Assembly: GCA_038734825.1 (NCBI GenBank)
Contig: JAVYOD010000003.1
Location: forward strand, 1 to 43,859
Length of the DNA: 43,859 bases
Source of the DNA: Thermoplasmatales archaeon
GTDB taxonomy: Archaea; Thermoplasmatota; Thermoplasmata; Thermoplasmatales; GCA-001856825
Reading direction: 5' to 3'
Under the pieces are notes generated by a model, which was not told the DNA's origin, ran no database searches, and was given only the letters and a program-made list of their open reading frames with translations. Positions within the stretch are counted from its first letter, which is position 1. Each line of letters opens with the position of its first letter. Shown here piece after piece: positions 10,981 to 29,393 of this stretch. The position numbers and the translations under genes are program-made.

Positions 10981-12249
10981 ATGGTTGAATCGCAAATATC
11001 AGGTTTCTACAAGCTCCCAATCGAGAAAAGGAGGGAAAAGCTCCGAGAGATACTCAATTTAAGCGATGAGGAAGTGAGCCTTATGGCTAGCATGAACGGC
11101 CTCGACGAAGGAATCGCAGACAGGATGATAGAAAATGTTGTTTCAGTAATGGAGGTTCCGATAGGAATAGCGACAAACTTCCTGATAAATGATAAAGATT
11201 ATTTGATTCCAATGGCAATTGAAGAGCCAAGTGTTGTAGCTGCCGCATCAAATGCAGCCAAAATGGCAAGGGTTAAAGGGGGGTTTAAATCGATTTCGTC
11301 CGATCCTATAATGATAGGGCAGATTGAGCTCAGCGGTATTAAAGATCCTTTTGGAGCAAAGTTTAGAATTCTTGAGATGAAAAATGAACTGATCCAGATG
11401 GCTAATTCCAAGGATCCAGTGCTGGTAAAATTGGGTGGAGGAGTAAGGGATATTGAGGTTCGAGTGATAGATGAAGAAAACCCGATGGTTGTTGTCCATC
11501 TCTTAGTTGATGTGAGGGATGCAATGGGTGCAAACGCAGTTAACACCATGGCGGAGTATCTCGCTCCTAAGATATCTGAAATATCGCGAGGGAGAGTAAG
11601 GCTGAGGATATTAAGCAATCTAGCAACCTACAGGATTACGAGATCCTTTGCGATATTCGACAAAAAAACTATAGGAGGGGAAGATGCAGTAGAAGGAATA
11701 ATCGAGGCGTACAGATTTGCCAAGATTGATCCGTACCGAGCTACAACGCACAACAAGGGAATAATGAACGGGATTGATGCAGTTCTCGTCGCAACTTCTA
11801 ATGACTGGAGGGCTGTTGAGGCAGGGGCACATGCTTACGCTGCTTTGAACGGTTATACTTCCCTATCAAAGTGGGAAATTAACGAAAACGGGGATCTAGA
11901 AGGGTACCTCGAAATACCTATTGCGGTTGGTGTAGTGGGGGGAGCAACGGCGACTCATCCTAAGGCAAAGTTGATGAGGAAGATCCTAGGTGTAACGTCA
12001 GCTCGGGAATTCGCAGACGTCCTTGGAGCCGTTGGCCTAGCCCAGAATTTCGCAGCAATCAGGGCTTTAGCAACTGAAGGAATACAGAGAGGTCATATGG
12101 AGCTTCATGCACGGAATGTGGCAATATCAGCGGGTGCAAAAGGGGACGAGATAGACGAGGTGGCAGAAATAATGGTCAGGGATAAAACAATAAGGGTCGA
12201 TTACGCATCTGAAGTTCTTAAATTGATAAGAAGCAAGGCTAGAGGTTAA
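10981..12249 (+). CDS. mvaA: Hydroxymethylglutaryl-CoA reductase, class II (bacterial type)
   Basis: MIENV, PMAIEEPSVVAA, DAMGAN, RILSNL, THNKGIMNG, GIQRGHM. Confidence 0.95.
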   Translation: MVESQISGFYKLPIEKRREKLREILNLSDEEVSLMASMNGLDEGIADRMIENVVSVMEVPIGIATNFLINDKDYLIPMAIEEPSVVAAASNAAKMARVKGGFKSISSDPIMIGQIELSGIKDPFGAKFRILEMKNELIQMANSKDPVLVKLGGGVRDIEVRVIDEENPMVVVHLLVDVRDAMGANAVNTMAEYLAPKISEISRGRVRLRILSNLATYRITRSFAIFDKKTIGGEDAVEGIIEAYRFAKIDPYRATTHNKGIMNGIDAVLVATSNDWRAVEAGAHAYAALNGYTSLSKWEINENGDLEGYLEIPIAVGVVGGATATHPKAKLMRKILGVTSAREFADVLGAVGLAQNFAAIRALATEGIQRGHMELHARNVAISAGAKGDEIDEVAEIMVRDKTIRVDYASEVLKLIRSKARG

Positions 12250-12754
12250 ACGTATTCCTATCTTTCTCATCCCACACATCTCTTTCCCCTATTATGTATA
12301 TTCCATCATACGAATCTCCGTTGAATCTCGACCTTACATCCCAGTACCTATCCCAGAGGAGGAGAATAAATTTCTGGCCGTCTGCCTTCCTTATCTCAGG
12401 ATTTTTTTTAATGGAATCAAGGAAATTTAAATCCTCAATAGCATCTCCAGAAACTGTGTCTATGTATTTTTCCATCAATGACTTTAGAGCAGTAACGTAG
12501 TATACGGGATATTTGCGAAGGCTCTCGACCTCGGTGGGCGTGCAGTCAACTATTTCATTAATATAGATACGCCTATTATCTATTCTCAGGGAAGCAACTT
12601 CTCTTTCCCCTATTGTGATCCTCACTAAACCATCCTCTCTTTCCTCCTCTACTTTTGAGAGCAGGTTCTCTATATTAACCCCCTCTATCGGTACTTTAGA
12701 ATAAGTTGAAAATCCACGGTACGGAATTACCCTTGTCCCAGGAGTTCCCGTCAT
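12239..12754 (-). CDS. Hypothetical protein
   Basis: 171-aa ORF with normal composition and a TATA-like element upstream. No family recognised. Confidence 0.65.
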   Translation of the reverse strand: MTGTPGTRVIPYRGFSTYSKVPIEGVNIENLLSKVEEEREDGLVRITIGEREVASLRIDNRRIYINEIVDCTPTEVESLRKYPVYYVTALKSLMEKYIDTVSGDAIEDLNFLDSIKKNPEIRKADGQKFILLLWDRYWDVRSRFNGDSYDGIYIIGERDVWDEKDRNTFNL

Positions 12755-13072
12755 TATATGTATTAAGGAATGATTCTAGAAAAAATTAATGATGAACCCT
12801 TTAGCTACAACTTTAGCTCATAAGTAGGTTATGTGTATTCCATCTTATTATACAGTCTTAATTATTTTCCTTTGAACTACTTCGCATTCTATATAAAGGT
12901 CTATAAATCGGAAAAAATGGTTGTAACTAAAACATGAGCTTAATAAAAATTCTGTGAATTAGGAGATGGAATTAATGAAAAATTCTTTATAACCCAAAGA
13001 ACAAAAGAATATTCTTATATCGGAATGCTACATGTAGTAGTAGATCTATCACAGTATTAATGAAGGGATTAC

Positions 13073-15391
13073 ATGCAAGCATTAAAAAAATTGGAAGAAA
13101 TGAAGTCTATACTTGATATTGCAATTATCAAACGGTTAGAATACGCGCTTAAGAGGGACGAACTTGATAAGAACATCGAGCAAAATACCTCAAAAGAATT
13201 CCAAAGTGTCGGAAGAATAGTGGAATTTAGAACAGAAGGGAATACGATTAACGTTGATTATGAGAAAGCTAAGTTGAAGATCTCAACGTTTCAGGGGGAC
13301 ATCTTGAGGGTCGTGTGGAATAACCCGAAAACTGTGTCAGAAATAGTTCCAACTTTTCAGCTCACAACGCCAGTATTTGTAAGATCAAGTAACTCAGAAA
13401 TAGTATTTCTTTCGGAAAATGTTGAGATAGGAATAAAGGAGAATGGAAGCATATATTTCTATCATAAGCCATCAGGAATTACTAGGGCTGAAGTTTTTCA
13501 ATCAGGAGATGGCAATGTAAGGTTAATCTCAGAAATTCCCGCTGATTTCCGTATTTATGGTGGTGGTGAAAATGCGCAACAATTAAACATTAGAGGTAGC
13601 AGTCTCACGCTTTGGAACCACGACGCAAATGGGAAATACGGTCCTGGGGACGATCCCCTGTACATAGGTATCCCTGTATTTTTACATATTATCTCTGATT
13701 CAGGTTATTTGACCTTTTTCAATAGTTCGCATAGGTGTACTGCTGATCTTTGCCACGAGAGTGACCAATTAGAATCACTTGAATTCTCCGATCATGGGTT
13801 GGAGTATTACATTTCATTTGGGCAAATAAGTAAGCTAACTGAAGATCTTTCAGTTATAACCGGCAAACCTGCAATGCCGCCACAATGGGCACTAGGTTTT
13901 CATCAATCAAAATACAGCTACTCTTCGGAACGTGAGGTTCTGGATCTTGTTAAAAAATTCAGAGAAAACGATCTCCCCATATCTGCCGTTCACCTGGACA
14001 TTGACTACATGGATGGGTTCAAGGTTTTCACAATTGATCGATCGAAATTCCCAAATTTCCCTAAAATGGTAGAACAGTTAAAAACAATGGGCATTAGGGT
14101 AGTGACTATCATTGATCCGGGGGTTAAGGTGGATGAAAAATATGAGATCTTTGTGGATGGCTTTAAGAATAGCTGCTTCGTGACTGACATTAATGGAAAT
14201 GTTATTGAAGCCCCCGTCTGGCCCGGTTTAACGGCTTTTCCTGATTTCACATCTGAAAAAGTAAGAGAATGGTGGGCATCTAAATATAAAAAGTTCATTG
14301 ATCTTGGTGTTTCAGGTTTTTGGCACGACATGAATGAACCAGCTGTGTTCACTGCATGGGGAGACAACACCCTTCCACTATCTGCAAAATTTGAGGGTGG
14401 AATTCATGCCGATGTTCACAATCTCTATGGCCTATATATGGCTAAAGCCGGTTATCAAGGAATAATTAAGGCAAGACCAAATGAAAGGCCTTTTATCCTT
14501 TCCAGATCTGGTTGGGCAGGGCTACAGAAGTATTCTTGGACATGGACAGGAGACACAGAGACTAGCTGGGCAGAACTGAAGCAAACCATCGCAACAATCA
14601 TTAATCTTGGCTTGTCTGGAATCCCATTTTCAGGGTCTGATATAGGAGGTTTTGCAGGCTCTCCCAGTAATGAGCTCTTCCTAAGATGGTTTCAAATGTC
14701 TGCATTCTTTCCTCTATTCCGGGTTCATTCAAACAAGGGTACACGGCCGCGTGAGCCCTGGGCATTTGGAAAAGAAAATATGGATATCCTAAGAAAGTTC
14801 CTAAAGCTGAGGTACAGGATTATCCCATATCTATATACACAAGCATATTTAACATCAAAGACAGGCCACCCCATTATCAGACCGCTATTCTGGCTGGGTG
14901 ATCCATCTGTTTCAGAGGATGACGAGAAATTTCTAGTGGGTGATAAGATACTCGTTGCCCCAATACTCGCCCCAGGCCAGACAACGAAAATTATAAAACT
15001 ACCTAAAGGAGACTGGATTGATTTCTGGTCCGAGTCAAAAGCGAATGGAATTGTTGAAATTAAAGTGAGCAAAGAAAAAATACCGGTCTATGTGAGATCC
15101 GGCTCTATCATACCGATGCAAGGTGAAAACGTGTTGGAACTGCATATTTACCAAGGGAATGATTTTTCTGGGGAACTGTATGTAGATGACGGTATGCTTA
15201 ACCCCGAATACACTTATTATACATTCAGGGGAAAGCGAGATAGCGGGAATATAAAATTGGATGTAAATAAGGAAGGGAACATTTCCAAGAATTTAGTGGT
15301 AAGGATAGTTGCGCCAAATGATGTAAAGACCATTACAATAGGCAAGTCTATCTATCAATACAGGGGGGACAATCTGGAGGTGGAATTATGA
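13073..15391 (+). CDS. malA: Alpha-glucosidase (GH31)
   Basis: DPLY, PPQWALGFHQS, HLDIDYM, nucleophile WHDMNEP, acid/base WTGD, SDIGGF, FRVH. Confidence 0.93.
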   Translation: MQALKKLEEMKSILDIAIIKRLEYALKRDELDKNIEQNTSKEFQSVGRIVEFRTEGNTINVDYEKAKLKISTFQGDILRVVWNNPKTVSEIVPTFQLTTPVFVRSSNSEIVFLSENVEIGIKENGSIYFYHKPSGITRAEVFQSGDGNVRLISEIPADFRIYGGGENAQQLNIRGSSLTLWNHDANGKYGPGDDPLYIGIPVFLHIISDSGYLTFFNSSHRCTADLCHESDQLESLEFSDHGLEYYISFGQISKLTEDLSVITGKPAMPPQWALGFHQSKYSYSSEREVLDLVKKFRENDLPISAVHLDIDYMDGFKVFTIDRSKFPNFPKMVEQLKTMGIRVVTIIDPGVKVDEKYEIFVDGFKNSCFVTDINGNVIEAPVWPGLTAFPDFTSEKVREWWASKYKKFIDLGVSGFWHDMNEPAVFTAWGDNTLPLSAKFEGGIHADVHNLYGLYMAKAGYQGIIKARPNERPFILSRSGWAGLQKYSWTWTGDTETSWAELKQTIATIINLGLSGIPFSGSDIGGFAGSPSNELFLRWFQMSAFFPLFRVHSNKGTRPREPWAFGKENMDILRKFLKLRYRIIPYLYTQAYLTSKTGHPIIRPLFWLGDPSVSEDDEKFLVGDKILVAPILAPGQTTKIIKLPKGDWIDFWSESKANGIVEIKVSKEKIPVYVRSGSIIPMQGENVLELHIYQGNDFSGELYVDDGMLNPEYTYYTFRGKRDSGNIKLDVNKEGNISKNLVVRIVAPNDVKTITIGKSIYQYRGDNLEVEL

Positions 15392-15449
15392 ATGAGCTTA
15401 TTTTAATTCCCAAGTATTGTGAATATTGGAGGGCAAATGGGGGGATAAG

Positions 15450-16529
15450 ATGGCATCACTATCATTGAGTCACATTACGATGTTTTATAACAGTAAGGTG
15501 AAAGCGCTAGATGACGTGAGTCTTGATATAGAAGACGGAGAATTCTTCGTTATCTTAGGGCCAAGTGGGAGTGGTAAGACGACAATATTGCGTGTTATTG
15601 CGGGACTGGAGCAGCCCTCTCAAGGCTCCGTTATCATGGATGGTCTAGACATAACGAATTATCCCCCAAGAGAACGAGACATAGCTATGGTGTTTCAGAA
15701 CTATGCGCTATATCCGTATCTCACTGTAAGGCAGAATTTAGAATTTCCATTGAAAGCGCGCAAAATGTTGAAAAAAGATATAGATGAAAGAGTCGAAGAG
15801 GTCGCACATCTTCTTCAAATTTCTGAACTACTTGATAGGAAACCGGGTGAGATATCAGGCGGGCAAAGACAAAGGGTAGCCCTTGGAAGGGCCATAATTA
15901 GGAAACCAAAGCTTTTCCTTATGGATGAACCCCTAAGCAATCTAGATGCGAAACTTAGAGGCTCGATGAGGACAGAGCTCAAGACTTTGCAAAAAAACTT
16001 GCAAGTTACAACGGTGTACGTGACACACGATCAGATAGAAGCTTTGACGCTGGGAAATAGAACTGCATTAATAAATCTAGGAAGGGTAGTACAGGTTGGC
16101 AAACCGGAGGAAGTATTTAACAAGCCTAAGAATTCTTTCGTTGCTTCATTCCTTGGAGATCCACCTATAAATTTTCTGAGAGCTACTATTAGTATGGGAA
16201 AGACAACTAATCTGGTAATCGGGAAAACAGAGTTTACTATTCCCGGCACCTCTGCGTTAAATAAATACAAAGATAAGGAAGTTATCCTGGCTGTTAGACC
16301 AGATGATATATCGTTCTCTAATGATGGTCTGGAAGGTGAGATAATTTCTGCGAGCCTGCTTGGGAGAATTGTGCACTATGTCATCAAGTTGAGAGAAACA
16401 GGAGAACGTCTTGAAAAGGTAGAAACCTACACGGGAGATATGAAAAAGGAGGGAAGTAAGATTAAGCTAACATTTGCGCTAGACAGGATTCTCCTGTATG
16501 ATATTGATACTCAGGAACTTATAAGTTAA
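15450..16529 (+). CDS. malK: Sugar ABC transporter ATP-binding subunit (MalK/MsmX type)
   Basis: Walker A GPSGSGKT, VFQNYALYP, SGGQRQR, MDEPLSNLDA, VTHDQ, C-terminal regulatory domain. The ATG at 15450 is preferred as start. Confidence 0.93.
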   Translation: MASLSLSHITMFYNSKVKALDDVSLDIEDGEFFVILGPSGSGKTTILRVIAGLEQPSQGSVIMDGLDITNYPPRERDIAMVFQNYALYPYLTVRQNLEFPLKARKMLKKDIDERVEEVAHLLQISELLDRKPGEISGGQRQRVALGRAIIRKPKLFLMDEPLSNLDAKLRGSMRTELKTLQKNLQVTTVYVTHDQIEALTLGNRTALINLGRVVQVGKPEEVFNKPKNSFVASFLGDPPINFLRATISMGKTTNLVIGKTEFTIPGTSALNKYKDKEVILAVRPDDISFSNDGLEGEIISASLLGRIVHYVIKLRETGERLEKVETYTGDMKKEGSKIKLTFALDRILLYDIDTQELIS

Positions 16530-18406
16530 TCTGTTGTGCTACTGAATAATACAATTCCGTTCTTTTCAATCCATTTACGTCCATTATTTGAGGATAAACC
16601 TGAACTTAGAATCGGCTCATCTTTCGATATAAATTGCTGATTTCTTTTGGATATTGAGAGAGTGACTATCTTATCTTCAAGAATCTTTTTAATTCTAATC
16701 CAGTTTTTATCCTCAGACGCTGAAATAATACCAGGATTCCCTAGGTTTAGAAGATACCTGATATTAGCCAGGGATATTACGAAATCAAGAAGATCTCTAT
16801 TCATTCTTTCCCAGGGAAATGGCCTCCTGCTATCAGGATCTGGACCACCTTCGAGACCAACCTCATCTCCGTAATATATGGTTGCAAATCCGTCGAGCAG
16901 GTATAGGATAGAGAATACTGCCTTCGTCTTTGGAATGCTGTTGTTCATGGTTTCAAGTATCCTTTCAGTGTCATGCGAATCCAAAATATTCATCATGCTC
17001 TGCATTTTTAAAGATCCATATTCGGTGTTGGCTCTTGCAATCATTGCGTTGAACTTGTCACAGCTAATCGAGCCATTTATAAGGCCTATTATTGCATCGC
17101 GCAAATAATAATTCGTAACACCGTCCCAGAAACCAGATCTCAAGAATAAAGATGAAAGGCACCAAGCTTCCCCTATTTTGAGAAATTTCTTTCCAAGTCT
17201 TGCAGTTGTAAACTCAATAAAATCACGGGGAATCGAAATGGCAACATCGTACCTGAAGCCATCCACATCATAACCCAGCGCCCAGAATTCAGTGACACTT
17301 CTAAAATACTCCATTACATCTAGGTTGTCATGATTTAGCTTTGGCATTTCTGGGACGTTCTCAAATGTTTCGTAATACAAGCCATTGATCCGGGCTTTCT
17401 TTCTACCCCACGACCTGAGGTAGTCCGGTCTTATCCTATGAAATTTATACCACAAGAAATATGGAGATTTTTTCCCTCTGATAGCTGAGTCCGCGAATGG
17501 TGGGAAGTTAGTAGAAGAATGGTTGAAGGGAACATCAAGTATAATCTTCATTTTCCTTTCATGTAGTGCGTTGACAAGGTATCTGAAATCTTCATTTGTG
17601 CCGAGGAGAGGATCGACCGTGAAATAATCATCAACGTTGTACCTGTGATTTGAACGGCTTTTAAAAATAGGATTCAGATATACAAATTCAACGCCAAGTG
17701 ATTCCAGGTAGTCCAATTTTTCTGCGATGCCATTTAGGTTACCCCCAAAGAAGTTCGTTGCTGTCGGCGCCTCGTTCCAGCTGGCCAATCCGTCTATGTT
17801 TTCATTTCCCGATCTGTTAAACCTGTCTGGAAATATGTGATATATGATCCCTGTTTTCTCATACCGTCTTTCTGGGTGTATATTACATCTATAATAGCCC
17901 CTATTAGGGAGTTTTTTACCATCTATAAGAAAACGATATTCATCAACGGGCTTTACCACAAATTCAATGAGATCGTAATTTTCAAGATTATGGCGACTTT
18001 TTGAAATAATTTGTGGAACATTACTCCTTAATTCCACAAAAACAGAGTTAAATGTCTTCGGAACAGCAACGACCAATCGCATAATGTTTCCGTATATAGA
18101 AGCGAATCCAGAATTTGTCGGGTCGTGAAATGCAGAATCTAGTGGGATAGCAAATTTCTTAGGATTTTTGATCGGTTTTCCCTCTTCATCTATAGAGTAT
18201 ACTTGGTTAACAAGGATTTTATATGAATATATTCCAGGTGGAAGCGTTATTTTGCATTTCAGCTTCCTATTGCCTCTCAGAGAAAAGCTCCCTTCACCCA
18301 TGCAGTTGAAATTGCCTGTTAAATAAACGGTATCATAACCTTTCCGTTTTAAAACTGAAAAAGTAACATCGTGGTAAAAACCATTGATTTTTTTAATTTT
18401 AGGCAC
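16526..18406 (-). CDS. GH13 cyclomaltodextrinase/neopullulanase-type enzyme with N-terminal CBM48-like domain
   Basis: YHIFPDRF, GGNLNG, SNHRY, LDVPFNH, MPKLN, catalytic DGFRYDVA, IGEAW and SHDTER, YYGDE, DPDSRRPF. No signal peptide. Confidence 0.9.
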   Translation of the reverse strand: MPKIKKINGFYHDVTFSVLKRKGYDTVYLTGNFNCMGEGSFSLRGNRKLKCKITLPPGIYSYKILVNQVYSIDEEGKPIKNPKKFAIPLDSAFHDPTNSGFASIYGNIMRLVVAVPKTFNSVFVELRSNVPQIISKSRHNLENYDLIEFVVKPVDEYRFLIDGKKLPNRGYYRCNIHPERRYEKTGIIYHIFPDRFNRSGNENIDGLASWNEAPTATNFFGGNLNGIAEKLDYLESLGVEFVYLNPIFKSRSNHRYNVDDYFTVDPLLGTNEDFRYLVNALHERKMKIILDVPFNHSSTNFPPFADSAIRGKKSPYFLWYKFHRIRPDYLRSWGRKKARINGLYYETFENVPEMPKLNHDNLDVMEYFRSVTEFWALGYDVDGFRYDVAISIPRDFIEFTTARLGKKFLKIGEAWCLSSLFLRSGFWDGVTNYYLRDAIIGLINGSISCDKFNAMIARANTEYGSLKMQSMMNILDSHDTERILETMNNSIPKTKAVFSILYLLDGFATIYYGDEVGLEGGPDPDSRRPFPWERMNRDLLDFVISLANIRYLLNLGNPGIISASEDKNWIRIKKILEDKIVTLSISKRNQQFISKDEPILSSGLSSNNGRKWIEKNGIVLFSSTTD

Positions 18407-19186
18407 TTTTTATCATGTGGACATTTAATTTTATATAAATAGATTTCATCTCAAAATCAAGTGCCTATTAATTTTTAGCGTGGAATACTTTGAATATTTG
18501 CAGGATTCTAGTTGCCTTTTTGCTTGGAGTTGCGATATTCGTTCAGAAATCATTTTTTGAATATGTAATCGTGTTCTTCAAAGAATCTTAAGAAAGGTAT
18601 TAGGTTTCTCTAACCTGATAATTGTAACATACCTGTTTCTCCTTTTCTTTATTGGAAACTGATTGTTTATATAGTCACAAAAATATTTTTTACAAACCGA
18701 AGAAACATAGTATTGATAAGAAGCAACCCATGCCCCCTTTTTAAATCTTAGTTTGAATATTCTAATAATTATTCTAATAAAATAGAACACACAGTTCAAT
18801 CCTTCAATTGTGCTTTGTCTCCCATAAAAATAATCCAGTTCAAAATCTAGCATTTTTTGAAAAGATTTCAATCATTAATTTTCCTAATAGGTATTATGTG
18901 ACAACTTAGTTAGTGCAATCGGTAAAAATGTATGTTATATAATCCTCATTCATGACCATAAGTGTTTTTTAATAATTTCCACTGTTCTGGATATGAATAT
19001 CAGTTTTTTCCTACTGCCAGTATTAAGGAAATATCTTGGTGCAGCATTTGGCCAGGGGCAGAATTTGTATTAACTCAAATTCCGATGCTTTAAATGAGAT
19101 ATCGCTATAATACATAAGATAAAGCTGCACTCGTTTGTTGATCTGCGGTATTCCCATTATATTTATAGCGAATTGAACTATTTAGA

Positions 19187-20194
19187 ATGATGGATGAAAA
19201 CAAAATTTTTCAGGATTTGTCACGTTTTGGTCTATCTCCCTATGAGGTGAAGGTTCTTTCCACACTTCTTTTGAAGGGACCGTTGACATCCATGGATGTG
19301 GTTAGGGCCTCCGGGGTGCCACAGCCTCGAATTTACGATATATTTGAATCTCTTATAAGGAAAGGATTTGTTGAGGTCAGCCCAGGCAGGAGACGGATAT
19401 ACCGTGCAATACCCTTATCTATATCACTTGAAAGGCAGCTGGATGAGCTTAGGGATATTGCTGATAGCGTAAGTTCATATGTACAGGAACACCAAGGTAA
19501 GAAAACAAATGAAACACCTCTCGTCTGGCTCATAGAAGGGAGAGAACATGTTATTTCAAGAATAAGAAATATGATCAACGAATCAAAAAGTGAAATTATC
19601 TTGTCAATTACTTATGACACATTCAGAGCCATTAGAAAGTATATGGAAAAGGCGGTTTCAAGAGGTGTAACAGTAGCTGTCGTACTCTATCCGGATACCC
19701 CTATTCAGAGGATTCAGGCTCTAGAAGGCATAGTTGCTAAAAGGCGAGAATCAGTTGCTTCTGAGGTTATAATAGTAGACAGGGACCAAGCGCTTCTAAA
19801 TGTCAATAATTATAATTCAGATCAAAATTATGCTCTCTATTTTGAAGAGAACGAATTAATCCACGTTCTAAATTATTATTACTTTCACACAATCTGGGAG
19901 CCATCTAGCTATGTAAATACATTTAGCAGTAGCAAGTCCCTGAAATTCACGACTTCGTGGCTAGCATGTGAGGCAATTGATCAGATTAGTAAATCCGGCA
20001 GACCAATAAAAGGTGAGTTAAGATGCCTGATAGGCGACCAGGAACATACGATAATAGGAACTATCACAGGCACAAAAAGAATTCCAGGATTGCAGCACGC
20101 TTTTTTTATTGAGGCGGATGGAAGAACTTATTCTGTAGGGGGCAGGACTGCAAGATTGGAAGATGCTAAACTTATAGAAATAAAAATAAATTAA
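19187..20194 (+). CDS. trmB: TrmB-family sugar-sensing transcriptional regulator
   Basis: FGLSPYEVKV, SGVPQPRIYD wHTH, C-terminal effector domain ending YSVGGRTARLED. Confidence 0.92.
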   Translation: MMDENKIFQDLSRFGLSPYEVKVLSTLLLKGPLTSMDVVRASGVPQPRIYDIFESLIRKGFVEVSPGRRRIYRAIPLSISLERQLDELRDIADSVSSYVQEHQGKKTNETPLVWLIEGREHVISRIRNMINESKSEIILSITYDTFRAIRKYMEKAVSRGVTVAVVLYPDTPIQRIQALEGIVAKRRESVASEVIIVDRDQALLNVNNYNSDQNYALYFEENELIHVLNYYYFHTIWEPSSYVNTFSSSKSLKFTTSWLACEAIDQISKSGRPIKGELRCLIGDQEHTIIGTITGTKRIPGLQHAFFIEADGRTYSVGGRTARLEDAKLIEIKIN

Positions 20195-20210
20195 TATTGT
20201 GAGAGTGCAA

Positions 20211-21125
20211 CTATTTGTATCTCCCAATTGAAAATCCAGATACGAGATACTTCTGGAACACGAAAAATACGATAAAGATAGGTAATCCCATAAGCACAGC
20301 GAAGGCTGCAAATGTATTGTAATTCATTGATACTGTGCCAGTTGACACATAATACATGCCAATTGCCAGCGTGTAGAGGTGAGCAGATGTTAAGAACTGC
20401 CCTGCAAGAGCATAATCTGTGTACGGTCCCATGAATGAAAGTATGAAAGAAAATATTACAGCCGGGAATGCTGATGGAATCAGTACCTTGAAAAGTGCCT
20501 CAGTTCTTGAATAGCCGTCTAACTGTGCGGCCTCCTCATAGTCCTTTGGAATCGAATCGACGTAGTTCTTTATCAAATATGTTGAGAATATTAAAGCCCC
20601 AGCAGAATAAGGAATGAGCAATGCAAATATATTATCAATCAACCTGAGCTTAGCGAACATGAAGTAATATGGTATGACCATGACAGTCATCGGGAATGTC
20701 GTTAAAATAAGAAGCATGTAAAGTAGCACCTTTTTCCCAGACATATTGAAACGCGACAATACAATTCCGGAGGTTATTGCTAACCCAACACCTATAAGTG
20801 AAGATACACCTGTTAAGAAAAGAGAATTTCTCAGCCAAAGTAAAAAAGGATAGTGCGTTAGAATAGATACATAGGTTGAAGTTACCATACGGGAAAAGTT
20901 AGGAATAATGGCTGAAAGAGACATTAGTCCGAGTGATGGAACAGGACTGAAGGATAACATGATCATATAATAAATAGGAAAAACAGAGTATATAGAAACT
21001 ATAGATAGAATAATATACGTTATTATCCGTTTAACTTTTCTAATATTCTTATAATATTGGTTTTTTGAGCCAAAAATATTGAGATTTTTTTGTTTTGGAA
21101 TATTCGTACTCACATTTCTATCCAT
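20211..21125 (-). CDS. malG: Sugar ABC transporter permease (MalG-like)
   Basis: Multiple TM helices, EAA loop SIPKDYEEAAQLDG, FQKYLVSG end. Confidence 0.9.
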   Translation of the reverse strand: MDRNVSTNIPKQKNLNIFGSKNQYYKNIRKVKRIITYIILSIVSIYSVFPIYYMIMLSFSPVPSLGLMSLSAIIPNFSRMVTSTYVSILTHYPFLLWLRNSLFLTGVSSLIGVGLAITSGIVLSRFNMSGKKVLLYMLLILTTFPMTVMVIPYYFMFAKLRLIDNIFALLIPYSAGALIFSTYLIKNYVDSIPKDYEEAAQLDGYSRTEALFKVLIPSAFPAVIFSFILSFMGPYTDYALAGQFLTSAHLYTLAIGMYYVSTGTVSMNYNTFAAFAVLMGLPIFIVFFVFQKYLVSGFSIGRYK

Positions 21126-21134
21126 AGCAACACC

Positions 21135-22055
21135 TCAATATAGCACCTGCATCATCTTCGTATACTTATTAGCTAAAACAACGAAGACAACGAGCAGAAT
21201 AAGCGAAATAATGGAATAGGCAGCGGCAACACTGTAATCGCCATCACTGAACGCAAGAATGTAGGAGTAGACCATAAGCGTGCTTGTAGATATTCCGGGA
21301 CCACCCCCTGTCAACAGGTAAATCACATAAAAATTATTCCAAGTAAATATGAATCCAAATATTGTGATAAATGCAACCTGGCGGCTCACTAGAGGTAGCA
21401 CAACTCTTCGTAGGCGTCCGAAGAGACCATAGCCATCCATTTCTGCAGCATCATTCAGCTCAGTTGGTATACTTTGAAGTGTTGCTGTGAATACAAATGT
21501 GTAATAAGGGAAGGAAAGCCAGAGATTTACTAATATTGCCGAAAGCATTGCAAGCGAAGGGTTTGTTAGCCAGTCCGGACCTTTTAACCCGATAGCCGTT
21601 AACATCTGATCAATAATGCCGAAGTGAGCGTCAAGCATACCACCCCATATAAGAATAGTTATGAAGGCGGGATATGCCCAGGGAAAAAGGAATAATGTCC
21701 TAAAGGCATATTTCCCCCTTAGATCCCTCTGATTCATGAGTAAAGCGAGAGCGAAACCAACCGGAACCATTAATGCAATGCTACCCAAACTAAAAACAAC
21801 AGTATTCAGAAATACTTCTTGTAGATGGAAAAAAGTTATAGCGTATTTATACATAAGCAGACCCACAAAAGGCGGCCTTAGAAAGTGGGGTCCGGTACTG
21901 AAGTTGAAAAATGAAAGATAAACTGTATATCCAAAAGGATAAAAATTCAAAAATGCCAACACAAGAATAACGGGAAGGAGATAAAGATAACCCAGTAATG
22001 TATCGCTTTGAATTTTTCGCGTACCGGAATGTGCCTGTGCTACCAAATTAGTCAT
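21135..22055 (-). CDS. malF: Sugar ABC transporter permease (MalF-like)
   Basis: TM helices, EAA loop SIPTELNDAAEMDG, LTGGGP. Confidence 0.9.
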   Translation of the reverse strand: MTNLVAQAHSGTRKIQSDTLLGYLYLLPVILVLAFLNFYPFGYTVYLSFFNFSTGPHFLRPPFVGLLMYKYAITFFHLQEVFLNTVVFSLGSIALMVPVGFALALLMNQRDLRGKYAFRTLFLFPWAYPAFITILIWGGMLDAHFGIIDQMLTAIGLKGPDWLTNPSLAMLSAILVNLWLSFPYYTFVFTATLQSIPTELNDAAEMDGYGLFGRLRRVVLPLVSRQVAFITIFGFIFTWNNFYVIYLLTGGGPGISTSTLMVYSYILAFSDGDYSVAAAYSIISLILLVVFVVLANKYTKMMQVLY

Positions 22056-22073
22056 GATATCATAATAAAAAAA

Positions 22074-23537
22074 TTAAAATTTAATGGCAGAATCAACTGC
22101 CATAAAGAAATTTTGCTGCACCGTGCTTGCTTGCGTTGTTTCTTGGCCATTTTGATTTATCTGGGGGCGGTCGTTAACTGCCGCTGATGTTGGATATCCC
22201 GCAGCCTGCAATGAATTTAGGATTCCTTGCTGTATCTGATTCATGACCGTGACTACAGGGTGAGGCCCTAATTTGGTACTATTCGCCCAGAGGTTTGAGG
22301 CACCAATGTGGAAGTTTGACCAGTAATAGTTCATCTGTACAAAGTTTGGTTGGATCTGCGTGTGGAGTTCCTGTTGCAGCCATCCATCAATAAGTGGATC
22401 TGAAGCTCTCAGGGACGCGTTTGATTCTATAGCGTTAGCTGCCGATATGAGGGACGGGAAATCTCCGGCTTGCTTAAAGTACTGAATCTGTGCATTTTCG
22501 TTTGTCATGAATTCCACGAACTTTAATGCCGCCCACCTTTGGCTTGGAGTAATGCCGCTGGCAGCGGGTGTAGAAATGACCCACCCAACGGATCCCCATA
22601 TCGGTCTGGGCCACTCATGTGTAGCGTTATCGTAAGGAATTGCCTCAACGCCCAAATTGCTTCCGAGATATTTCAAATAGGTTGACTGATCCCAAGGCCC
22701 GTCGAGAATGAAAGCTGCGTGGTTTGTTTCGAAGTATGCCTGCTCTGGAGCTAATCCACTGGATGTTGAAAGACTTGTGCTATCTGGGGCATTTGGTCCC
22801 TTTGTAAGATTGAAAAGGAAACTCATAGTTTGTATGTTCTGTGTACTATTCATAACTGGTAGCCAGACAGTGCTATTGACCTGAACAAAAAGGGTTCCGT
22901 TGAACATTGGTACGAATGCTGCGTATCTATAACCATAATCGGCACCTACTGCATACGGTAGTCCCAGATATGAACTTCCCATCGCCGAGACGTTCCTAGC
23001 GTCTTGTATCATTTGGTATATATTGCTTGGAGGAATGGGAGCACCTGTTGAGTTCTTTGGAAGAAGGGCCTTGTTGTAGTATAGGCCAATTCCATTTGTG
23101 TTGACAGGAATTCCATAAAGAGCACCATTAAGCGTCCAATCTGCCCTAGTTCCAGGAGTAAAACTGTTAATGTAAGATGAGTTTAGATAAGGTGTTAAAT
23201 TCATTATAAGCCCAGAGGCATAAAGAACGCCGCCGTTATCACTCGTGTCTCTATATACATCAGGGGCTGTCCCAGATTTTGCGGCAGTAATGAAGGTCTG
23301 AGAAGCGACGTTTATAGCAGGTGAGTCACTTATAGTTATATTTGGATACAAACTTTCAAACTCTGCGAGTGTGGAATTGAATACAGCACTTTCTCCACCA
23401 GCAGAACCCGATCCCCAGACGGTAAGCGTAATTTTCTGCGAACTGGTTGGATGGTAGAACGCAGCGAAATAAGTGCCGATTCCAGCCACAATGACAACAA
23501 CTATTACGATGGCAACTATTAAAGTGCTTCTTTTCAA
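22074..23537 (-). CDS. malE: Sugar ABC transporter substrate-binding protein (MalE-like)
   Basis: N-terminal TM anchor, GTAPDV, LYGIP, LYYNK, FILDGPW, ALKFVEF. SD GGTGG before TTG. Confidence 0.88.
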   Translation of the reverse strand: MKRSTLIVAIVIVVVIVAGIGTYFAAFYHPTSSQKITLTVWGSGSAGGESAVFNSTLAEFESLYPNITISDSPAINVASQTFITAAKSGTAPDVYRDTSDNGGVLYASGLIMNLTPYLNSSYINSFTPGTRADWTLNGALYGIPVNTNGIGLYYNKALLPKNSTGAPIPPSNIYQMIQDARNVSAMGSSYLGLPYAVGADYGYRYAAFVPMFNGTLFVQVNSTVWLPVMNSTQNIQTMSFLFNLTKGPNAPDSTSLSTSSGLAPEQAYFETNHAAFILDGPWDQSTYLKYLGSNLGVEAIPYDNATHEWPRPIWGSVGWVISTPAASGITPSQRWAALKFVEFMTNENAQIQYFKQAGDFPSLISAANAIESNASLRASDPLIDGWLQQELHTQIQPNFVQMNYYWSNFHIGASNLWANSTKLGPHPVVTVMNQIQQGILNSLQAAGYPTSAAVNDRPQINQNGQETTQASTVQQNFFMAVDSAIKF

Positions 23538-23549
23538 ATTACCACCATT

Positions 23550-23570
23550 TATACTAACGGAAATAGTATA
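23550..23570. promoter_or_regulatory. Inverted repeat TATACTA-N7-TAGTATA overlapping the malE TATA box, candidate TrmB operator
   Basis: Perfect 7-bp arms seen directly. Overlaps the minus-strand TTTTATATA at about 23567-23575. Confidence 0.55.
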
Positions 23571-24482
23571 TAAAAATCTTTCTCACGAATAGCTTCTTAA
23601 CCATTTTAGCTCGTCAGCTTTTCTAATTGATAATATACATCACATCATCCATTATATTTCATCTTCCCTGCCATCATAATCCCAGCCATAGCACTATTCA
23701 TAGCTGATAATAATATCTCATTTTTTCACGCACTGTCTCTCCCTCACCAAGGATTAAATTCCCATCCATTTGATTTCTCTAACAACTCTTCTTCATAGGT
23801 AAGAGATGGATCCTGCATCACTGTATGGAAGAACTTATGATTTACTCAATTGTAACACGAAGTTCTTACTCTTATTGTAACCTTTTCGGTGCACTTATAT
23901 TCTTTATGCTTAGGACTTTTCTGGATTCCTTTGTACAAGATTTATTCGTTAATTAAGATGTTATTCATTCTTTTGCAAGCATCTCTATCTTCCCTTTCCT
24001 ACTTACATTCCATATTTCGGGAAAACAACAATATCTCCGCATGAATTTCGATCGGATAAATCAATTATCCCTTTTTTATTGGAATATGCTTTGATCTCAT
24101 TAATAATTGATATGATACCTTTATGCGATGTAATATTGTGACATAGCTCAATGACCTGAACTTGCCTGTTAGTTCTAAAATTTCCTGATGAACCATTCCA
24201 GTTCCTTGAATGAAACATATTTCTTTGACATTAGAGATGAATGAGAAACTCCTGAGGTTATTCCTTCGGGTTTCCTACATATCGTTCTCTCTATTCATAT
24301 TATCATTATTGGATTCAGTTTAGCATATATCTGTTAAGTGTTGTGCTATCAAAAACTCTTTTATCCTTCATTTCTACGTTTCCAGAGAAATGCTCTATGT
24401 GAAACACCTCTTAATAATAACATCTTAACATTTTACCGAAAGAAATTAAGAATTGATTAACAGGCGGGTACAACGGAAAAAG

Positions 24483-24490
24483 TTAATATA
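24483..24490 (+). promoter_or_regulatory. TATA box with purine-rich BRE for the small ORF / tRNA-Ser unit
   Basis: CGGAAAAAG followed by TTAATATA, 24 nt upstream of the ATG at 24515 (leaderless geometry). Confidence 0.65.
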
Positions 24491-24514
24491 GGACAAATAT
24501 CACCCTTGATCGCT

Positions 24515-24676
24515 ATGCAGAAATTGGGTGAAGTTGATGTTTACCACGATGGGGAAACATTTAGAGTATTAATATCATATCCAAACGGTGATGAGCTTGT
24601 GCTAGAGGGCGATGACCTTGAGGACATCCTGGAGCAGCTAGCTACCGAGCTATCTGACAAGTACAGCAAAATTTAG
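24515..24676 (+). CDS. 53-aa small acidic protein, HicB-like beta-beta-beta-alpha pattern, below the ORF-track cutoff
   Basis: MQKLGEVDVYHDGETFRVLISYPNGDELVLEGDDLEDILEQLATELSDKYSKI. Has its own TATA box and coding-like composition inside AT-rich DNA. Confidence 0.75.
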   Translation: MQKLGEVDVYHDGETFRVLISYPNGDELVLEGDDLEDILEQLATELSDKYSKI

Positions 24677-24756
24677 CGGGGATAGCCGAGCGGTAAGGCG
24701 ACGGCCTGCTAAGCCGTTTCCCTATGGGATCGGGGGTTCGAATCCCCCTCCCCGCG
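24676..24756 (+). tRNA. tRNA-Ser (GCT), long variable arm, no encoded CCA
   Basis: Acceptor GCGGGGA/TCCCCGC plus G, anticodon arm ACGGC-CTGCTAA-GCCGT, variable arm TCCC-TAT-GGGA, T arm GGGGG-TTCGAAT-CCCCC. Confidence 0.96.
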
Positions 24757-26318
24757 CTCCATCACAGAACATTATGTTCTTAAGAACACATAAAACTAGA
24801 TTGGCGCTGTTAAATTTTTTATTGCTTAACAGATCAGCATATCATTCACATCTGTCTAAGGCTGAATTAAAAAGTGTCACGCAAATAATAAGCTGTTACA
24901 GACAATTTATTCTTTAGCTTCAAATGGTATCACTGTTACGTGCATAATCCTTGAAAACATGCAAATAGGCAATCTAAATTAAATAGTTAAAACAATTGTG
25001 CGCACGTCCCAGAGAGACATTTTCACATCTCATTTGTTTCTGTGGGTAGTGTAGATATAATCCAATAATACCCGCAATATGTTTTAGTGTAAACCACAAA
25101 CTTCGAATTTAAGCAATTGCAGGATGTACAAGCAAATGTAAAGTCTTATGAATGTTTTAATTGAATGAGAAAACTCACTAATCGGTTCTGAATGTGACAT
25201 CATTTTATTAACCGCATGATTAACTCAGAAAGTTTTTCCACGTAATTTTCAGGATTAAGTTGCTATTATTCCGAAACAGCATGATAGAGTAGGGGACAAA
25301 ATTGCCTTCATCATAGAAATCTGGTCTTTGCATTTACGAGTTTTTCTTGCTTTAAAAACATCTTGTCAATTTACCGAATGCATATTGTTATTGATGCAGC
25401 GTTTATCTGTTCCTATCATCACTTGTTTTCAATAGTCATCAAGGATGATTTTCAAGATCAGTATTATATTTCTACTTTATTTCTGGAAGAAATTTCGAAC
25501 CTGTAGCTGCCAAATCAAAAGTATGTTTTACTATCAAAGAGCTGGCATTGGCTGTGGGATATTATGTTTGCGAAGATGCGAGAGATCCTAGAAGAGGGTA
25601 TAGAATGAAGATAAAAAAATAAGATATGTAATTAGATTATGCAAATTGCCTCTGTTGTAGATTATGGTTGCAAGGGAAACATATCTTTTCACTTCTCTGC
25701 TCTCAATTTTCTGTGAAATTTGGCGTAACCTTCATTAATTGCTGCATCTCAGACCTTGCATTGGAGTATTTGCTACAGTATTGCCTTCGGTCATGTTATT
25801 TAACTGAACAAGAGGTAGCTTTGTATTAATTACATTTGCAGTAAGGTGAAATGCGAACCGATATAGAATGGCAGTGTTGCTGATAACGAAATTAAAATTA
25901 TCGATACCTAATTCTTTATTCATCGAAGGTCTGCATGTACTTAATAGTGGAATGCTCGCAATTTTTCCGAAAAGCATAAACAATTGTTATGATTAAATTT
26001 TCGAACTGATATTACAATAGGTGGTGTCGTTAGGATATAGAGGGAAATGAGAGAGCTGATATCAGAAATCTCATTCTCAATTGAACACGGATTTGCAGCA
26101 AAATCTTGGTCTCTAGATACCAAAATTGTTGCTTAAAAAGACTGATGAGACTGCTGTTAGAAAACCAATAAATTGATGAGATTTTTTAGGTGACATAAAA
26201 AATTGATATTCAGCATAGGTTACCCGTGTCATAGATCCTTATAGTTTGTCGCTTTCCGGAGATTTAACTAATTTTTTAAATAGTTGTAAATATTTATAAA
26301 AATAAAAAAATTATAGAA

Positions 26319-26807
26319 TTATTTTTTGTCCTTATCTATATTCTCAAGCATGCAACCTGAAAGTTTCCTAGCCACTGCGATCAACGCTGCCATTTCAGGA
26401 CTTCTTATTTGGTTCATCATCTCCATTAAGCCCATTTTCTCCTTTCTTCTCGATGATACTTTTAACACGTCTCTCGCTTCAGGAGCACAAGATGCTAATG
26501 CCTCCAATATCGGGATTAGCTTATTAAAGTCAACGTTCTCCAGTAATAAGAGAAGTTTTTCTATATCTCCTTTTTTCATGACCTTGGAAAGTGGTTTTAA
26601 AACCCGAATTGCCAGGGTCACGGTATCAAGTATTTCCATCTTTGTTGAATAATTGAATATATTGTCAAAGTCCTCAGCGAATCCGTCGATCATTCCAATT
26701 ATGCCGCTCTCCTGGAGCTTTTCTATGGTGTTTATCGTGGGTTCTAATGCGTTTAGTTTGTTCTCTATTCTATCTAATTTCTCATACAAATCATCAATCG
26801 TAGTCAT
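26319..26807 (-). CDS. DUF1641-like helical membrane-associated protein
   Basis: IEKLQESGII and KMGLMEMMNQIRSPEM patterns. Lies 2 nt downstream of the SQR-like gene, the usual pairing. Confidence 0.75.
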   Translation of the reverse strand: MTTIDDLYEKLDRIENKLNALEPTINTIEKLQESGIIGMIDGFAEDFDNIFNYSTKMEILDTVTLAIRVLKPLSKVMKKGDIEKLLLLLENVDFNKLIPILEALASCAPEARDVLKVSSRRKEKMGLMEMMNQIRSPEMAALIAVARKLSGCMLENIDKDKK

Positions 26808-26809
26808 AA

Positions 26810-27985
26810 TTACACTCTCCCCCTTAGGATCGATGCATAATAATACTTCTCATATACGGCATGTAATATTTTATAGATCCTTCCCCGATCCATTAACGAG
26901 CAATCGTTGAAAACGTAAGATGGATTCTTTAACTTCCTGCCGAAATCGCAGTAAGCTACCCAGCCGTATGAACCCCCCTCCATAGCACACATCGCAACCG
27001 GATTGAACGGCAGTGTAAGGTAGCTCCCTATGACGTCATCAGCGATAAACGTTGCAACAGTGTCAGCCTCAAAATGAGTGAAAGCTCCTGCCATGCCCAT
27101 CCCAAGGGTCGGAGATATCACATCTCCTATGGAGTATATATCATCGTACTTCGAGTTTCTAAAATTATTATAGTTAGAATCAGCCCATCCTACTTTAGAT
27201 CTGAGATCATCATTATTGGAAACGAAGTCGGGTGCAGTTTGAATCGGTGCCACAATCGCGAGGTCATATTTTATCCTCTCATTATTCTCCCCAACTAGTT
27301 CGTGTTTCAAAGCGTCGGCATAGGCAGGTAGGAACTTGTAAACCCCACCTATTTTCATTTCTTCCATCCATTGTCCCAGCGGGCCAGCTATATTTTCGCC
27401 GAACATCTCAAACTGCCTCCCCATCGGGTGTGCAACAGTGATTTCAACATTATTTCTTAGCCCCTTGTTCGTGAAATATTCATGCAACATCATCGACATC
27501 TCCCACGGCACTGGTGGGCACTTGTATATAGGACTAGCGACAGAAATCACTATCTTCCCCTTTTTGAATCCTGCCAGTGCAGTTCTCAATCTCAAGGCAG
27601 ACTTCAGATCCCAAAAATGATAAGTATCCTGGTATCCGGGGAACTTAGAATCGTTAAGCTGTACACCAGGAGAGAGAACTAGAATGTCATACTTGTACTG
27701 AGCATCTTTGGTATAGACAGTTCTGTTTCCTGCATCTACCTTCGTAACCTCAGCCTTAATAGGTTTTACGTTTTTGCGCGTCATATAATTGAAATCTTTG
27801 GAAATTTGTTCCTCTGTCCTGTTTCCAAGAGCAACGTATGTAAATGAAGGTTGAAATTCGACCTTTCCTTGTTTATCCAGGACAGTAATATTTACCTGGT
27901 CATCCTGTAATATTTTTGACAAGCGTGCTGCAAGCAATCCACCTCCTGCATTACCACCAACAATGACAATATTCTTAGGTACCAT
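26810..27985 (-). CDS. sqr: Sulfide:quinone oxidoreductase / FCSD-family flavoprotein
   Basis: N-terminal FAD fold IVIVGGNAGG, FQPSF, YDILVLSPG, YKCPPVPWE, IYSIGD, second Cys in AMCAMEGG. Confidence 0.8.
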   Translation of the reverse strand: MVPKNIVIVGGNAGGGLLAARLSKILQDDQVNITVLDKQGKVEFQPSFTYVALGNRTEEQISKDFNYMTRKNVKPIKAEVTKVDAGNRTVYTKDAQYKYDILVLSPGVQLNDSKFPGYQDTYHFWDLKSALRLRTALAGFKKGKIVISVASPIYKCPPVPWEMSMMLHEYFTNKGLRNNVEITVAHPMGRQFEMFGENIAGPLGQWMEEMKIGGVYKFLPAYADALKHELVGENNERIKYDLAIVAPIQTAPDFVSNNDDLRSKVGWADSNYNNFRNSKYDDIYSIGDVISPTLGMGMAGAFTHFEADTVATFIADDVIGSYLTLPFNPVAMCAMEGGSYGWVAYCDFGRKLKNPSYVFNDCSLMDRGRIYKILHAVYEKYYYASILRGRV

Positions 27986-29393
27986 ATAGCTCGACGCTTA
28001 ATTTCCAATGTATATTAATATATTATTAAATGTCGTACTTTTCAGTGAATATTGTAAGAACTAGAAACTAGAACTACTCAAACAAATTCACCTATAATAA
28101 ATCTTTAAGACCAAAAATTTGGCATTAATTTTACAATTTTGAATTTCTGGATTTTACCAAAATCTAGATGTAAAATCTATTTAAAAGCACAAATTCAATA
28201 AAAAAATTAGCAACTTTCTATCAAAATCAAAACTTCCTGTAGCAGGATTTTTGGAGGTGGAAACAGGTGCATTATGATCTCTTGATATTGATAGCAACAT
28301 TGCAAAATCGCTATGTTATTTATGGATGAGCATCTCCTTTTTTTATAACGATATAAAATCTATTTTTTTCCCTTACTAATTTGAAGCTTGGTATATTTTA
28401 TGAATTGACATTTTCCGTTATATATGCTCTCTACATCCTTTATGTTAGCTATTGCCTAATTAAGAATGTATACGTCACAGTCTCCAGGAGTGCGCTACGA
28501 TTCAGGATACCTATAGCATTTTCCATCTAATTGTTAATTTACACTGCTTATTACACCCTTCCTTTTTTGTGAATATTTATCAATTTATATTGAACAACTA
28601 GCCTATTTACTCTATTTTTGAAAGGGGGGTATGAGTATCTTAAATGAAGCACGGGACAGAAACCTGAAATTTGATTAAAGTTAAGCATTGTGGTTACAAA
28701 AAGACTATTACTATCTCTCCTAATCAATTTCATAATCAAATTGATGGTAGCGGGGAAGAGACACTAGGAGCTCAGTAATCCAGAGAAGAATTTCACAAAG
28801 ATAAAGAGGTCGAGCCCTTCTCATCTTTTAGCAACCTTCAACATTGAGGAAAATACCTATCACTTTTAGGTAACCTATGCGGAGCAGATTATATTTTTTA
28901 TAAGACAGCTCTAGTTTTTAGGGCTTTTGGAGTGGTAATAATGCAGATAGCCTTGAAAGATTGGAATATAATCCTGATGTGGAATATTCTTAGTTTTTCA
29001 TCACTATACCTACACATAGAAGCATATATAGAATATTTTGAGTAATAAATCACAAGTTTGCGATTGGGGAAAATATTGCAGTTATGAGGTTTAAGTATCG
29101 AGTTCAAATCCCTTTGGAGAAGGCTGTCAAAGATGGCAGCACCAAGGAAAATTGTTGATGGTTTCAAACCCTGACCGCATTTTTTATAGGATGATAAAAG
29201 CAGAACTAAAGGCAAAAACGTCAAAACCAAGGCTAAAGAACGATTCTCACTTCCAACTATCAGTGAGGGTTTAGTTACAATCTAGATTCACGAAATTTTA
29301 TAACGGGTCTGATTAAATGAGAAGTATTACAGCTACGATTCCAAAGATAAAAGTGTGTTAGCATCTACGGAGTAGCACAGGGTGGAATAAATA

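Follow-up and report, generated by a model that had tools for sequence, protein, structure and literature searches.

In the genome of a Thermoplasmatales archaeon, the stop codon of a gene for a 53-residue acidic protein shares its last base with base +1 of tRNA-Ser(GCU), the sole copy of this tRNA found in the genome. The stretch analysed, hereafter the window, comprises 43,859 nucleotides (contig JAVYOD010000003.1 of assembly GCA_038734825.1, forward strand). By genome comparison, the linkage of this core small-protein gene to the only tRNA-Ser(GCU) is conserved across two Thermoplasmatales families, and we infer from the promoter landscape that the two genes are co-transcribed, which is the most economical reading of the locus. 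We consider it probable that a single leaderless transcript carries both the reading frame and the tRNA, that RNase P cuts it at tRNA base +1, that the protein is made mainly from the uncut precursor, and that the cut message is short-lived. Co-transcripts of an mRNA and a tRNA that are split by RNase P are already known from E. coli; an archaeal stop codon that abuts or overlaps the tRNA was not found in the full texts searched. The finding is also wider than a 1-nt overlap, as the junction ranges from a 15-nt spacer to a 10-nt overlap.

The reading frame and tRNA-Ser(GCU) share one base

The frame is open from TTG 24506, and the start codon common to all relatives is ATG 24515, which gives 53 residues up to the TAG at 24674-24676. 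The junction reads ...TAC AGC AAA ATT TAG, followed by CGGGGATAGCC, and the G of TAG doubles as acceptor-stem base +1. The shared G had been pointed out in the first-pass annotation of this DNA, and the sequence, ARAGORN and Rfam all place it there: ARAGORN predicts tRNA-Ser(gct) at 24676-24757, and the Rfam tRNA model gives a full-length match at 24676-24756 (66.8 bits, E 2.3e-13). We take the discriminator G at 24756 as the tRNA 3' end, the ARAGORN end lying one base further. The features of the cassette are as follows.

24476..24490, + strand: putative BRE/TATA promoter GAAAAAG TTAATATA; matrix score 10.62 bits at 24476, motif also present in relatives
24499..24510, + strand: palindrome ATCA-N4-TGAT between the TATA box and the start codon, read from the sequence; conserved at the nucleotide level within the genus
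24515..24676, + strand: gene for a 53-aa acidic protein, apparently leaderless; from codon-position variation, homologues and an AlphaFold2 model
24562..24575, + strand: weak TATA-like string TAGAGTATTAATAT inside the reading frame; 6.24 bits, 114 nt before the tRNA
24674..24676, + strand: stop codon TAG, last base identical with tRNA base +1; from sequence, ARAGORN and Rfam
24676..24756, + strand: tRNA-Ser(GCU) with a long variable arm, sole copy found in the genome; from ARAGORN and Rfam

This tRNA is one among 41 ARAGORN predictions in a genome that is 87% complete. The genome encodes RNase P RNA (RNaseP_arch match of 169.1 bits at G000:C45:2426-2721), and since RNase P RNA is present and tRNA-Ser(GCU) is single-copy, its precursor must be processed. 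It also contains two adjacent RNase PH-domain genes, the exosome core, and one eRF1/Pelota-family gene locus.

Linkage and junction states in related genomes

A pattern scan of one genome per species returned 86 loci encoding a relative of the protein, of which 80 were kept. These loci were fetched by protein similarity, and tRNA-Ser(GCU) lies directly downstream in 68 of them. Among the remaining 12, one contig ends as the tRNA begins, one has only 61 nt of downstream sequence, and the other ten carry 882-1500 nt of downstream sequence without tRNA-Ser(GCU); by their titles, these ten come from DHVE2 group, Aciduliprofundum, Thermoplasmata or Methanobacteriota MAGs. Pooling the loci of the pattern scan with those of a DNA search and removing identical ORF-tRNA sequences left 73 distinct loci, the window excluded, with the following junctions.

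Stop codon 5-15 nt before tRNA +1: 20 of 73 loci
Stop codon 1 nt before tRNA +1: 5 of 73 loci
Stop codon abutting tRNA +1: 33 of 73 loci
Stop codon overlapping +1 by 1 nt, the state of the window: 3 of 73 loci (L002, L014 and L099)
Junction codon CAG, frame ending at a UAG formed by tRNA nt 8-10, which adds Q-R-G: 12 of 73 loci (for example L026, with the predicted C-terminus ...GKIQRG, which could arise only on an uncut precursor)

In every one of the 73 loci the stop falls in the range from +10 to -15 nt relative to the tRNA start, the longest spacer being 15 nt and the most frequent 0. One 1-nt overlap on its own might be accidental; with all 73 loci bounded in this way, the adjacency of frame and tRNA is not. 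The arrangement recurs in four loci from complete genomes, where the spacers measure 7, 4, 8 and 0 nt. The CAG junction is the majority state in the window's own genus, and the closest sister species differ at the junction codon (TAG versus CAG), indicating that the junction state flips without visible cost. Conservation of the 1-nt overlap had been proposed as a check by the first-pass annotation, with variable spacing set down beforehand as evidence against its idea. The overlap itself is not conserved, recurring in just 3 of 73 loci, and spacing does vary, yet it stays within the +10 to -15 bounds, and the adjacency of gene and tRNA is kept in 73 of 73.

In two singleton metagenome ORFs (P0023 and P0039) the junction stop is mutated and the frame runs through the whole tRNA; these may be real variants with a dispensable stop, or sequencing errors on contigs of 630 and 775 nt. 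Base A9 of the tRNA, which makes the UAG at nt 8-10, was considered as an evolved backup stop, and this was rejected, A9 being also present in the unlinked loci L019, L020, L110 and L112. According to database titles, the cassette occurs in the cultured species Oxyplasma meridianum, Thermogymnomonas acidicola and Acidiplasma aeolicum and in Cuniculiplasma, which makes the arrangement testable. Candidate loci for cultured species have spacers of 0 nt (L047), 1 nt (L091), 10 nt (L048) and 6-7 nt (L097 and L100).

A proposed shared transcript cut by RNase P

In the reading that we favour, the promoter at 24476-24490 would drive one transcript of about 245 nt plus a trailer, starting at or a few bases from the AUG and running without a gap into tRNA-Ser(GCU). 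A single RNase P cut at tRNA +1 would both mature the tRNA and make the 3' end of the message. The cut message would then end in ...AUU UA in this genome, in ...CA, with no stop, in most of the genus, and exactly at the stop codon in the largest share of relatives (33 of 73 loci). The protein would be made mainly from the nascent or uncut precursor, where a full stop codon exists, namely the UAG across the junction here and the UAG at tRNA nt 8-10 in the sister species. A ribosome terminating there would cover the 5' strand of the acceptor stem and presumably delay folding of the tRNA, and once cleavage has occurred the unprotected message would be quickly degraded, by analogy to E. coli secG. 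With such an arrangement, a protein gene would be able to draw on a strong tRNA-type promoter and yet have its protein output per transcript limited.

The closest precedent is E. coli secG-leuU, where, in the passages of the published account that deal with this pair, RNase P separates the mRNA from the tRNA, the half-life of secG mRNA is then below 30 s, and a 14-nt spacer is kept between the stop codon and leuU (PMC2241853). As far as those passages go, the likeness consists in a protein gene directly upstream of a same-strand tRNA, which is observed here, and in a shared transcript, one RNase P cut that generates the tRNA 5' end and, with it, the 3' end of the mRNA, and a freed mRNA with no protective 3' structure, which would apply here likewise. 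From the sequence, the locus offers the same-strand upstream gene and, between the start of the frame and the tRNA, a stretch that appears promoter-free, and the genome encodes RNase P RNA. Measured against the same passages, the present case differs in its modal spacer of 0, with a stop that in some loci overlaps the tRNA or sits inside it, and in being archaeal, apparently leaderless, linked across two families and known from sequence alone.

Should cleavage usually come first, the protein would be made mainly from the RNase P-cut message, either with a stop at its very 3' end or, here and in the CAG species, with no stop and with ribosome rescue. Processing of tRNAs is generally fast, an eRF1/Pelota-family gene is present, and the loss of the junction stop in 12 of 73 loci, together with the two singletons that read through the tRNA, looks as if the genomic stop mattered little. 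However, the stop lies at or before +1 in 61 of the 73 loci, and in the remaining 12 the frame meets a UAG 10 nt inside the tRNA, which suggests that ribosomes usually terminate on uncut RNA. A cut message without 3' structure should moreover be short-lived, again by the secG analogy, and aRF1-type factors read the base that follows the stop codon, which aRF1 would miss on a cut message. We therefore regard translation mainly after cleavage as rather unlikely.

A further extension of the shared-transcript reading would make the junction a kinetic switch, in which each transcript is decided between termination and the RNase P cut, and protein output reports the lifetime of pre-tRNA-Ser and feeds back on tRNA maturation or translation. 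Termination would need the 5' part of the tRNA to be uncut and unfolded, and the RNase P cut would destroy the stop both here and in the CAG species. We hold such a switch to be unlikely; if it were true, ribosomes making a core protein in this genus would routinely either read 1-10 nt of an essential tRNA before terminating or translate a no-stop message. The first-pass annotation had proposed that the cut end is either a non-stop message or repaired by tailing, along with ribosome-RNase P competition. Competition between termination and RNase P cleavage on one RNA, with cuts that can leave a message lacking a stop, survives as a candidate, sharpened by the 12 loci with a stop inside the tRNA. 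The tailing repair is not supported.

One predicted promoter before the reading frame and none before the tRNA

The TATA box TTAATATA lies at 24483-24490, behind an A-rich BRE-like stretch, with 24 nt to ATG 24515. No Shine-Dalgarno or GGAGG-like string occurs between the box and the ATG, and the spacing from TATA to ATG, which is the same in relatives, fits an apparently leaderless mRNA. The palindrome at 24499-24510 could be the binding site of a regulator or a promoter-proximal element.

Promoters were scored with a 14-column BRE/TATA matrix, built by expectation-maximisation on the 60 nt upstream of the genome's other 40 predicted tRNAs. In this training set the motif mostly lies 34-42 nt before tRNA +1, implying very short tRNA leaders. 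The best score of tRNA-Ser(GCU) in the interval from -60 to -1 is 2.17 bits, the lowest of all 41 tRNAs (the others reach 3.3-12.6), and the matrix scan finds no TATA-like site directly before it, the canonical -25 to -35 region included. The best site within 300 nt upstream of the tRNA is GAAAAAGTTAATAT at 24476 (10.62 bits), in front of the reading frame, and the promoter at 24476-24490 is the sole good match in that interval. The same holds throughout the relatives: when the 60 nt preceding the ATG and the 60 nt preceding the tRNA are compared for their best match, the former score higher in 73 of 73 loci (means 9.2 versus 1.7 bits), with the motif mostly starting 34-43 nt before the ATG. 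As the matrix was trained on the window's genome only, and two obvious promoters in other families scored just 2.9 and 3.3 bits, low scores in distant relatives are weaker evidence than low scores in its own genome.

The tRNA might nonetheless have a promoter of its own hidden inside the reading frame, in which case the two genes would be independent and simply tightly packed. The only internal candidate is the weak string at 24562-24575 (6.24 bits, 114 nt before the tRNA), which may act as one in this genome. Promoters of archaea can be degenerate, and the two real-looking ones in other families did escape the matrix. Yet the string requires a Leu codon where most relatives have Val, it is not conserved among the 73 loci, and synonymous sites vary there. 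Synonymous sites are in fact near-maximally variable along the whole frame, the last 15 codons included (normalised entropy mostly 0.7-1.0 in the 73 loci), which argues against a conserved promoter or RNA element concealed among the codons. Packing pressure is no better supported, since the cassette is flanked by about 0.9 kb (23538-24475) and about 1.5 kb (24758-26318) with no ORF of at least 90 aa and a GC content near 0.32, and genome compaction thus does not explain the tight junction.

A natural control comes from two families of the same order (f4 and f5), in which the protein gene and tRNA-Ser(GCU) lie at a great distance from each other or fall on separate contigs. In ten unlinked loci the 60 nt upstream of the tRNA were read, and the tRNA start could be located in eight, the other two being left unscored. 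A TATA-like box made up of A and T only, such as TTAATATA or TTTATATA, stands at about -35 to -20 in all eight readable loci. The unlinked tRNA thus displays an obvious TATA near -30, and tRNA-Ser(GCU) has a canonical promoter exactly where the reading frame is absent. Taken together, these comparisons make an independent tRNA promoter quite improbable. The promoter assignments of the first-pass annotation are borne out: TTAATATA lies 24 nt before the ATG of a 53-aa frame that looks leaderless and carries the signature of coding selection (16/5/52, see below), the TATA box that it did not see before the tRNA is indeed lacking (2.17 bits, lowest of 41), and the co-transcription that it called likely gains support from promoter scores, synonymous variation and the TATA boxes of unlinked loci.

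A fold of the 253-nt transcript leaves the cloverleaf intact and is not unusually stable overall (z-score -1.27). An RNA-labelled run, searched as contigs, covers 24200-25000 at a depth of about 3, coding sequence and non-coding flanks evenly, with a gap at 24652-24709. Three hot-spring metatranscriptomes, each sampled at about 3-5% of raw reads, contain 0 reads on the locus.

Relation to tRNA punctuation and other known systems

tRNA punctuation is the rule in animal mitochondria, where incomplete stop codons are completed by polyadenylation. The first-pass annotation had carried this over to the window as one of two options: RNase P would leave ...UA, and A-rich tailing by the exosome would rebuild UAA; on this view the 1-nt overlap would be a selected feature. 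As in mitochondria, the tRNA abuts the coding sequence, and excision of the tRNA would leave UA at the end of the message in this window. The genome has an exosome core in two adjacent RNase PH-domain genes. But conservation does not extend to the incomplete stop (3 of 73 loci), a complete stop is found at or before +1 in 58, and a further 12 would end in CA after the cut, from which tailing cannot make an in-frame stop; even the closest sister species flip between TAG and CAG. As the 1-nt overlap is not conserved, selection does not maintain a tailing step that turns UA into UAA, and we consider this explanation very improbable. Tails on archaeal RNAs are heteropolymeric decay tags. Mitochondrial punctuation is also a genome-wide system, whereas here it concerns one cassette.

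In plant mitochondria, a message may lose its stop codon through processing at the tRNA-like structures known as t-elements and nevertheless be translated. The likeness is that a cut at such a structure can strip a stop codon; t-elements, however, are organellar and only tRNA-like, whereas the element here is an essential tRNA. A case within archaea is Thermococcus kodakarensis, in which, in the part of the source that treats it, a tRNA-Lys lies inside the 5' UTR of TK0306 (PMC4247193). As described there, an archaeal tRNA and a protein gene appear to share one transcript, as they would here, but the order is reversed, with the tRNA first, and neither reading frame nor stop is involved. In the literature searched, this reverse order was the only form of archaeal tRNA-mRNA co-transcription that we found, and the searched full texts, a scope that leaves many subscription journals outside, contained no archaeal protein gene with a stop abutting, overlapping or inside an essential tRNA.

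The junction states form an allelic series that runs from spacers of 15-0 nt through a 1-nt overlap to a stop codon within the tRNA, and that also takes in the unlinked outgroups, whose tRNA is preceded by a promoter of its own. Such a series lends itself to the study of competition between the ribosome and RNase P on one RNA in archaea, of the fate of archaeal messages that lack a 3' UTR or a stop codon, and of a protein gene driven from a tRNA-type promoter.

The small acidic protein

Across 16 genomes with co-linear ORFs, variable sites number 16, 5 and 52 of 53 at the first, second and third codon positions, dN ranges from 0 to 0.13, and dS is mostly saturated; for the nearest relative dN is 0 and dS is 0.24. 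By this substitution pattern, the frame is a genuine protein gene under strong protein-level selection. A DNA search of 41 related genomes shows 71-97% identity over the promoter-ORF-tRNA block (about 24470-24762) in genomes of the same family, and more distant families match in the tRNA part only.

That the frame is spurious within a long tRNA leader, or encodes a Ser-codon-sensing leader peptide that attenuates tRNA-Ser, is scarcely conceivable: its promoter does resemble the tRNA promoters of this genome, and an AGC Ser codon, read by tRNA-Ser(GCU), stands three codons before the stop, but the coding signature is unmistakable, free-standing orthologues occur in genomes of the DHVE2/Aciduliprofundum type, and a paralogue with its own promoter exists in the same genome. 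Ser-codon attenuation was examined by codon counts and rejected, as AGY codons make up 52 of the 216 Ser codons (24%) in the 73 ORFs versus 26% genome-wide, with no enrichment. At the near-terminal Ser position, 17 of these ORFs have AGY and 13 have TCN.

The protein contains 14 D/E and 4 K/R among its 53 residues. A profile search detects it in 158 of 169 genomes of the order, and in all 74 genomes with at least 90% completeness and at most 5% contamination. The cassette thereby points to a family of small core proteins not yet characterised. In most genomes of the order the profile finds two matches. In the window's genome the second is a 54-aa paralogue at G000:C2:39527-39709 (L103 1525-1689; E 2.2e-5 to the family profile), which is situated downstream of a PAC2-family gene, is preceded by a TATA-like promoter of its own and has a 3' flank rich in T.

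A word-based search retrieved 13 proteins, all named hypothetical, from Thermoplasmatales, Thermoplasmata or Thermoplasmatota MAGs. Among 1.84 billion representatives, 26 proteins matched the profile at E<=0.001, of which 12 are small (53-103 aa) and 14 are long (453-4388 aa). The long proteins match repeatedly, and only to a short hairpin-like part of the profile, positions ~8-28; P0014, P0015, P0017 and others (up to 4388 aa) contain up to 29 such matches. We treated these as beta-hairpin repeat look-alikes and did not count them among the relatives. By profile matching, a widespread hairpin repeat and the strand-turn-strand part of the small protein look alike.

AlphaFold2, run with a 14-row alignment, predicts a beta-beta-beta-alpha fold with three strands and a C-terminal helix (pLDDT 89.5). 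The protein has no match in Pfam at E<=0.1 or in NCBIfam at E<=1, and the model has none in a Foldseek search of the PDB at E<=0.001. VIA-align reaches a best Z of 6.0 with mixed beta3-alpha matches, and the ESM Atlas returns unnamed clusters only, with scores of at most 0.85. No decisive match to a dsRBD-like, HPF/YfiA-like or HicB/UPF0150-like fold emerged from these comparisons; an identity as a HicB/UPF0150-like protein is not claimed, its sole support being a Z of 4.8 to 2yzt among many unrelated beta3-alpha matches. The label "TfoX/Sxy family", attached to one homologue in one source, has no profile match behind it.

A second tandem and the surrounding DNA

The same genome holds a second tandem of a small ORF and a tRNA, on the minus strand at G000:C67 ~1258-1510 (L104 205-309). 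Here 3 nt separate the end of a 35-aa eL41 gene from tRNA-Trp(CCA); the gene is identified by a match to Pfam Ribosomal_L41 whose 22.3 bits just equal the cut-off. There is no promoter-like site between the eL41 gene and tRNA-Trp(CCA), the nearest candidate lying about 159 nt upstream. Small ORFs that feed into tRNAs may be a habit of this lineage.

Around the cassette in the window, similarity to relatives stops near 24470 on the upstream side; downstream it extends to 24886 in the closest relative (L002) and only to the tRNA end in L003 and L004. A tRNA integration hotspot with decayed insertions could account for the flanks. An inverted repeat, AGAACAT/ATGTTCT at 24764-24799, closely follows the tRNA on its 3' side and may be part of a 3' trailer or terminator; its Rfam match to mir-567 is at chance level (22.6 bits against a gathering score of 90), and across 22000-28000 Rfam reports nothing besides the tRNA above chance level. 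In L002, L003 and L004, the DNA just upstream of the ORF-tRNA cassette matches 11305-12819 of the window, which indicates that about 11.6 kb (12819-24470) has been inserted or rearranged relative to them. This segment includes an ABC sugar-transporter cluster at 19187-23537.
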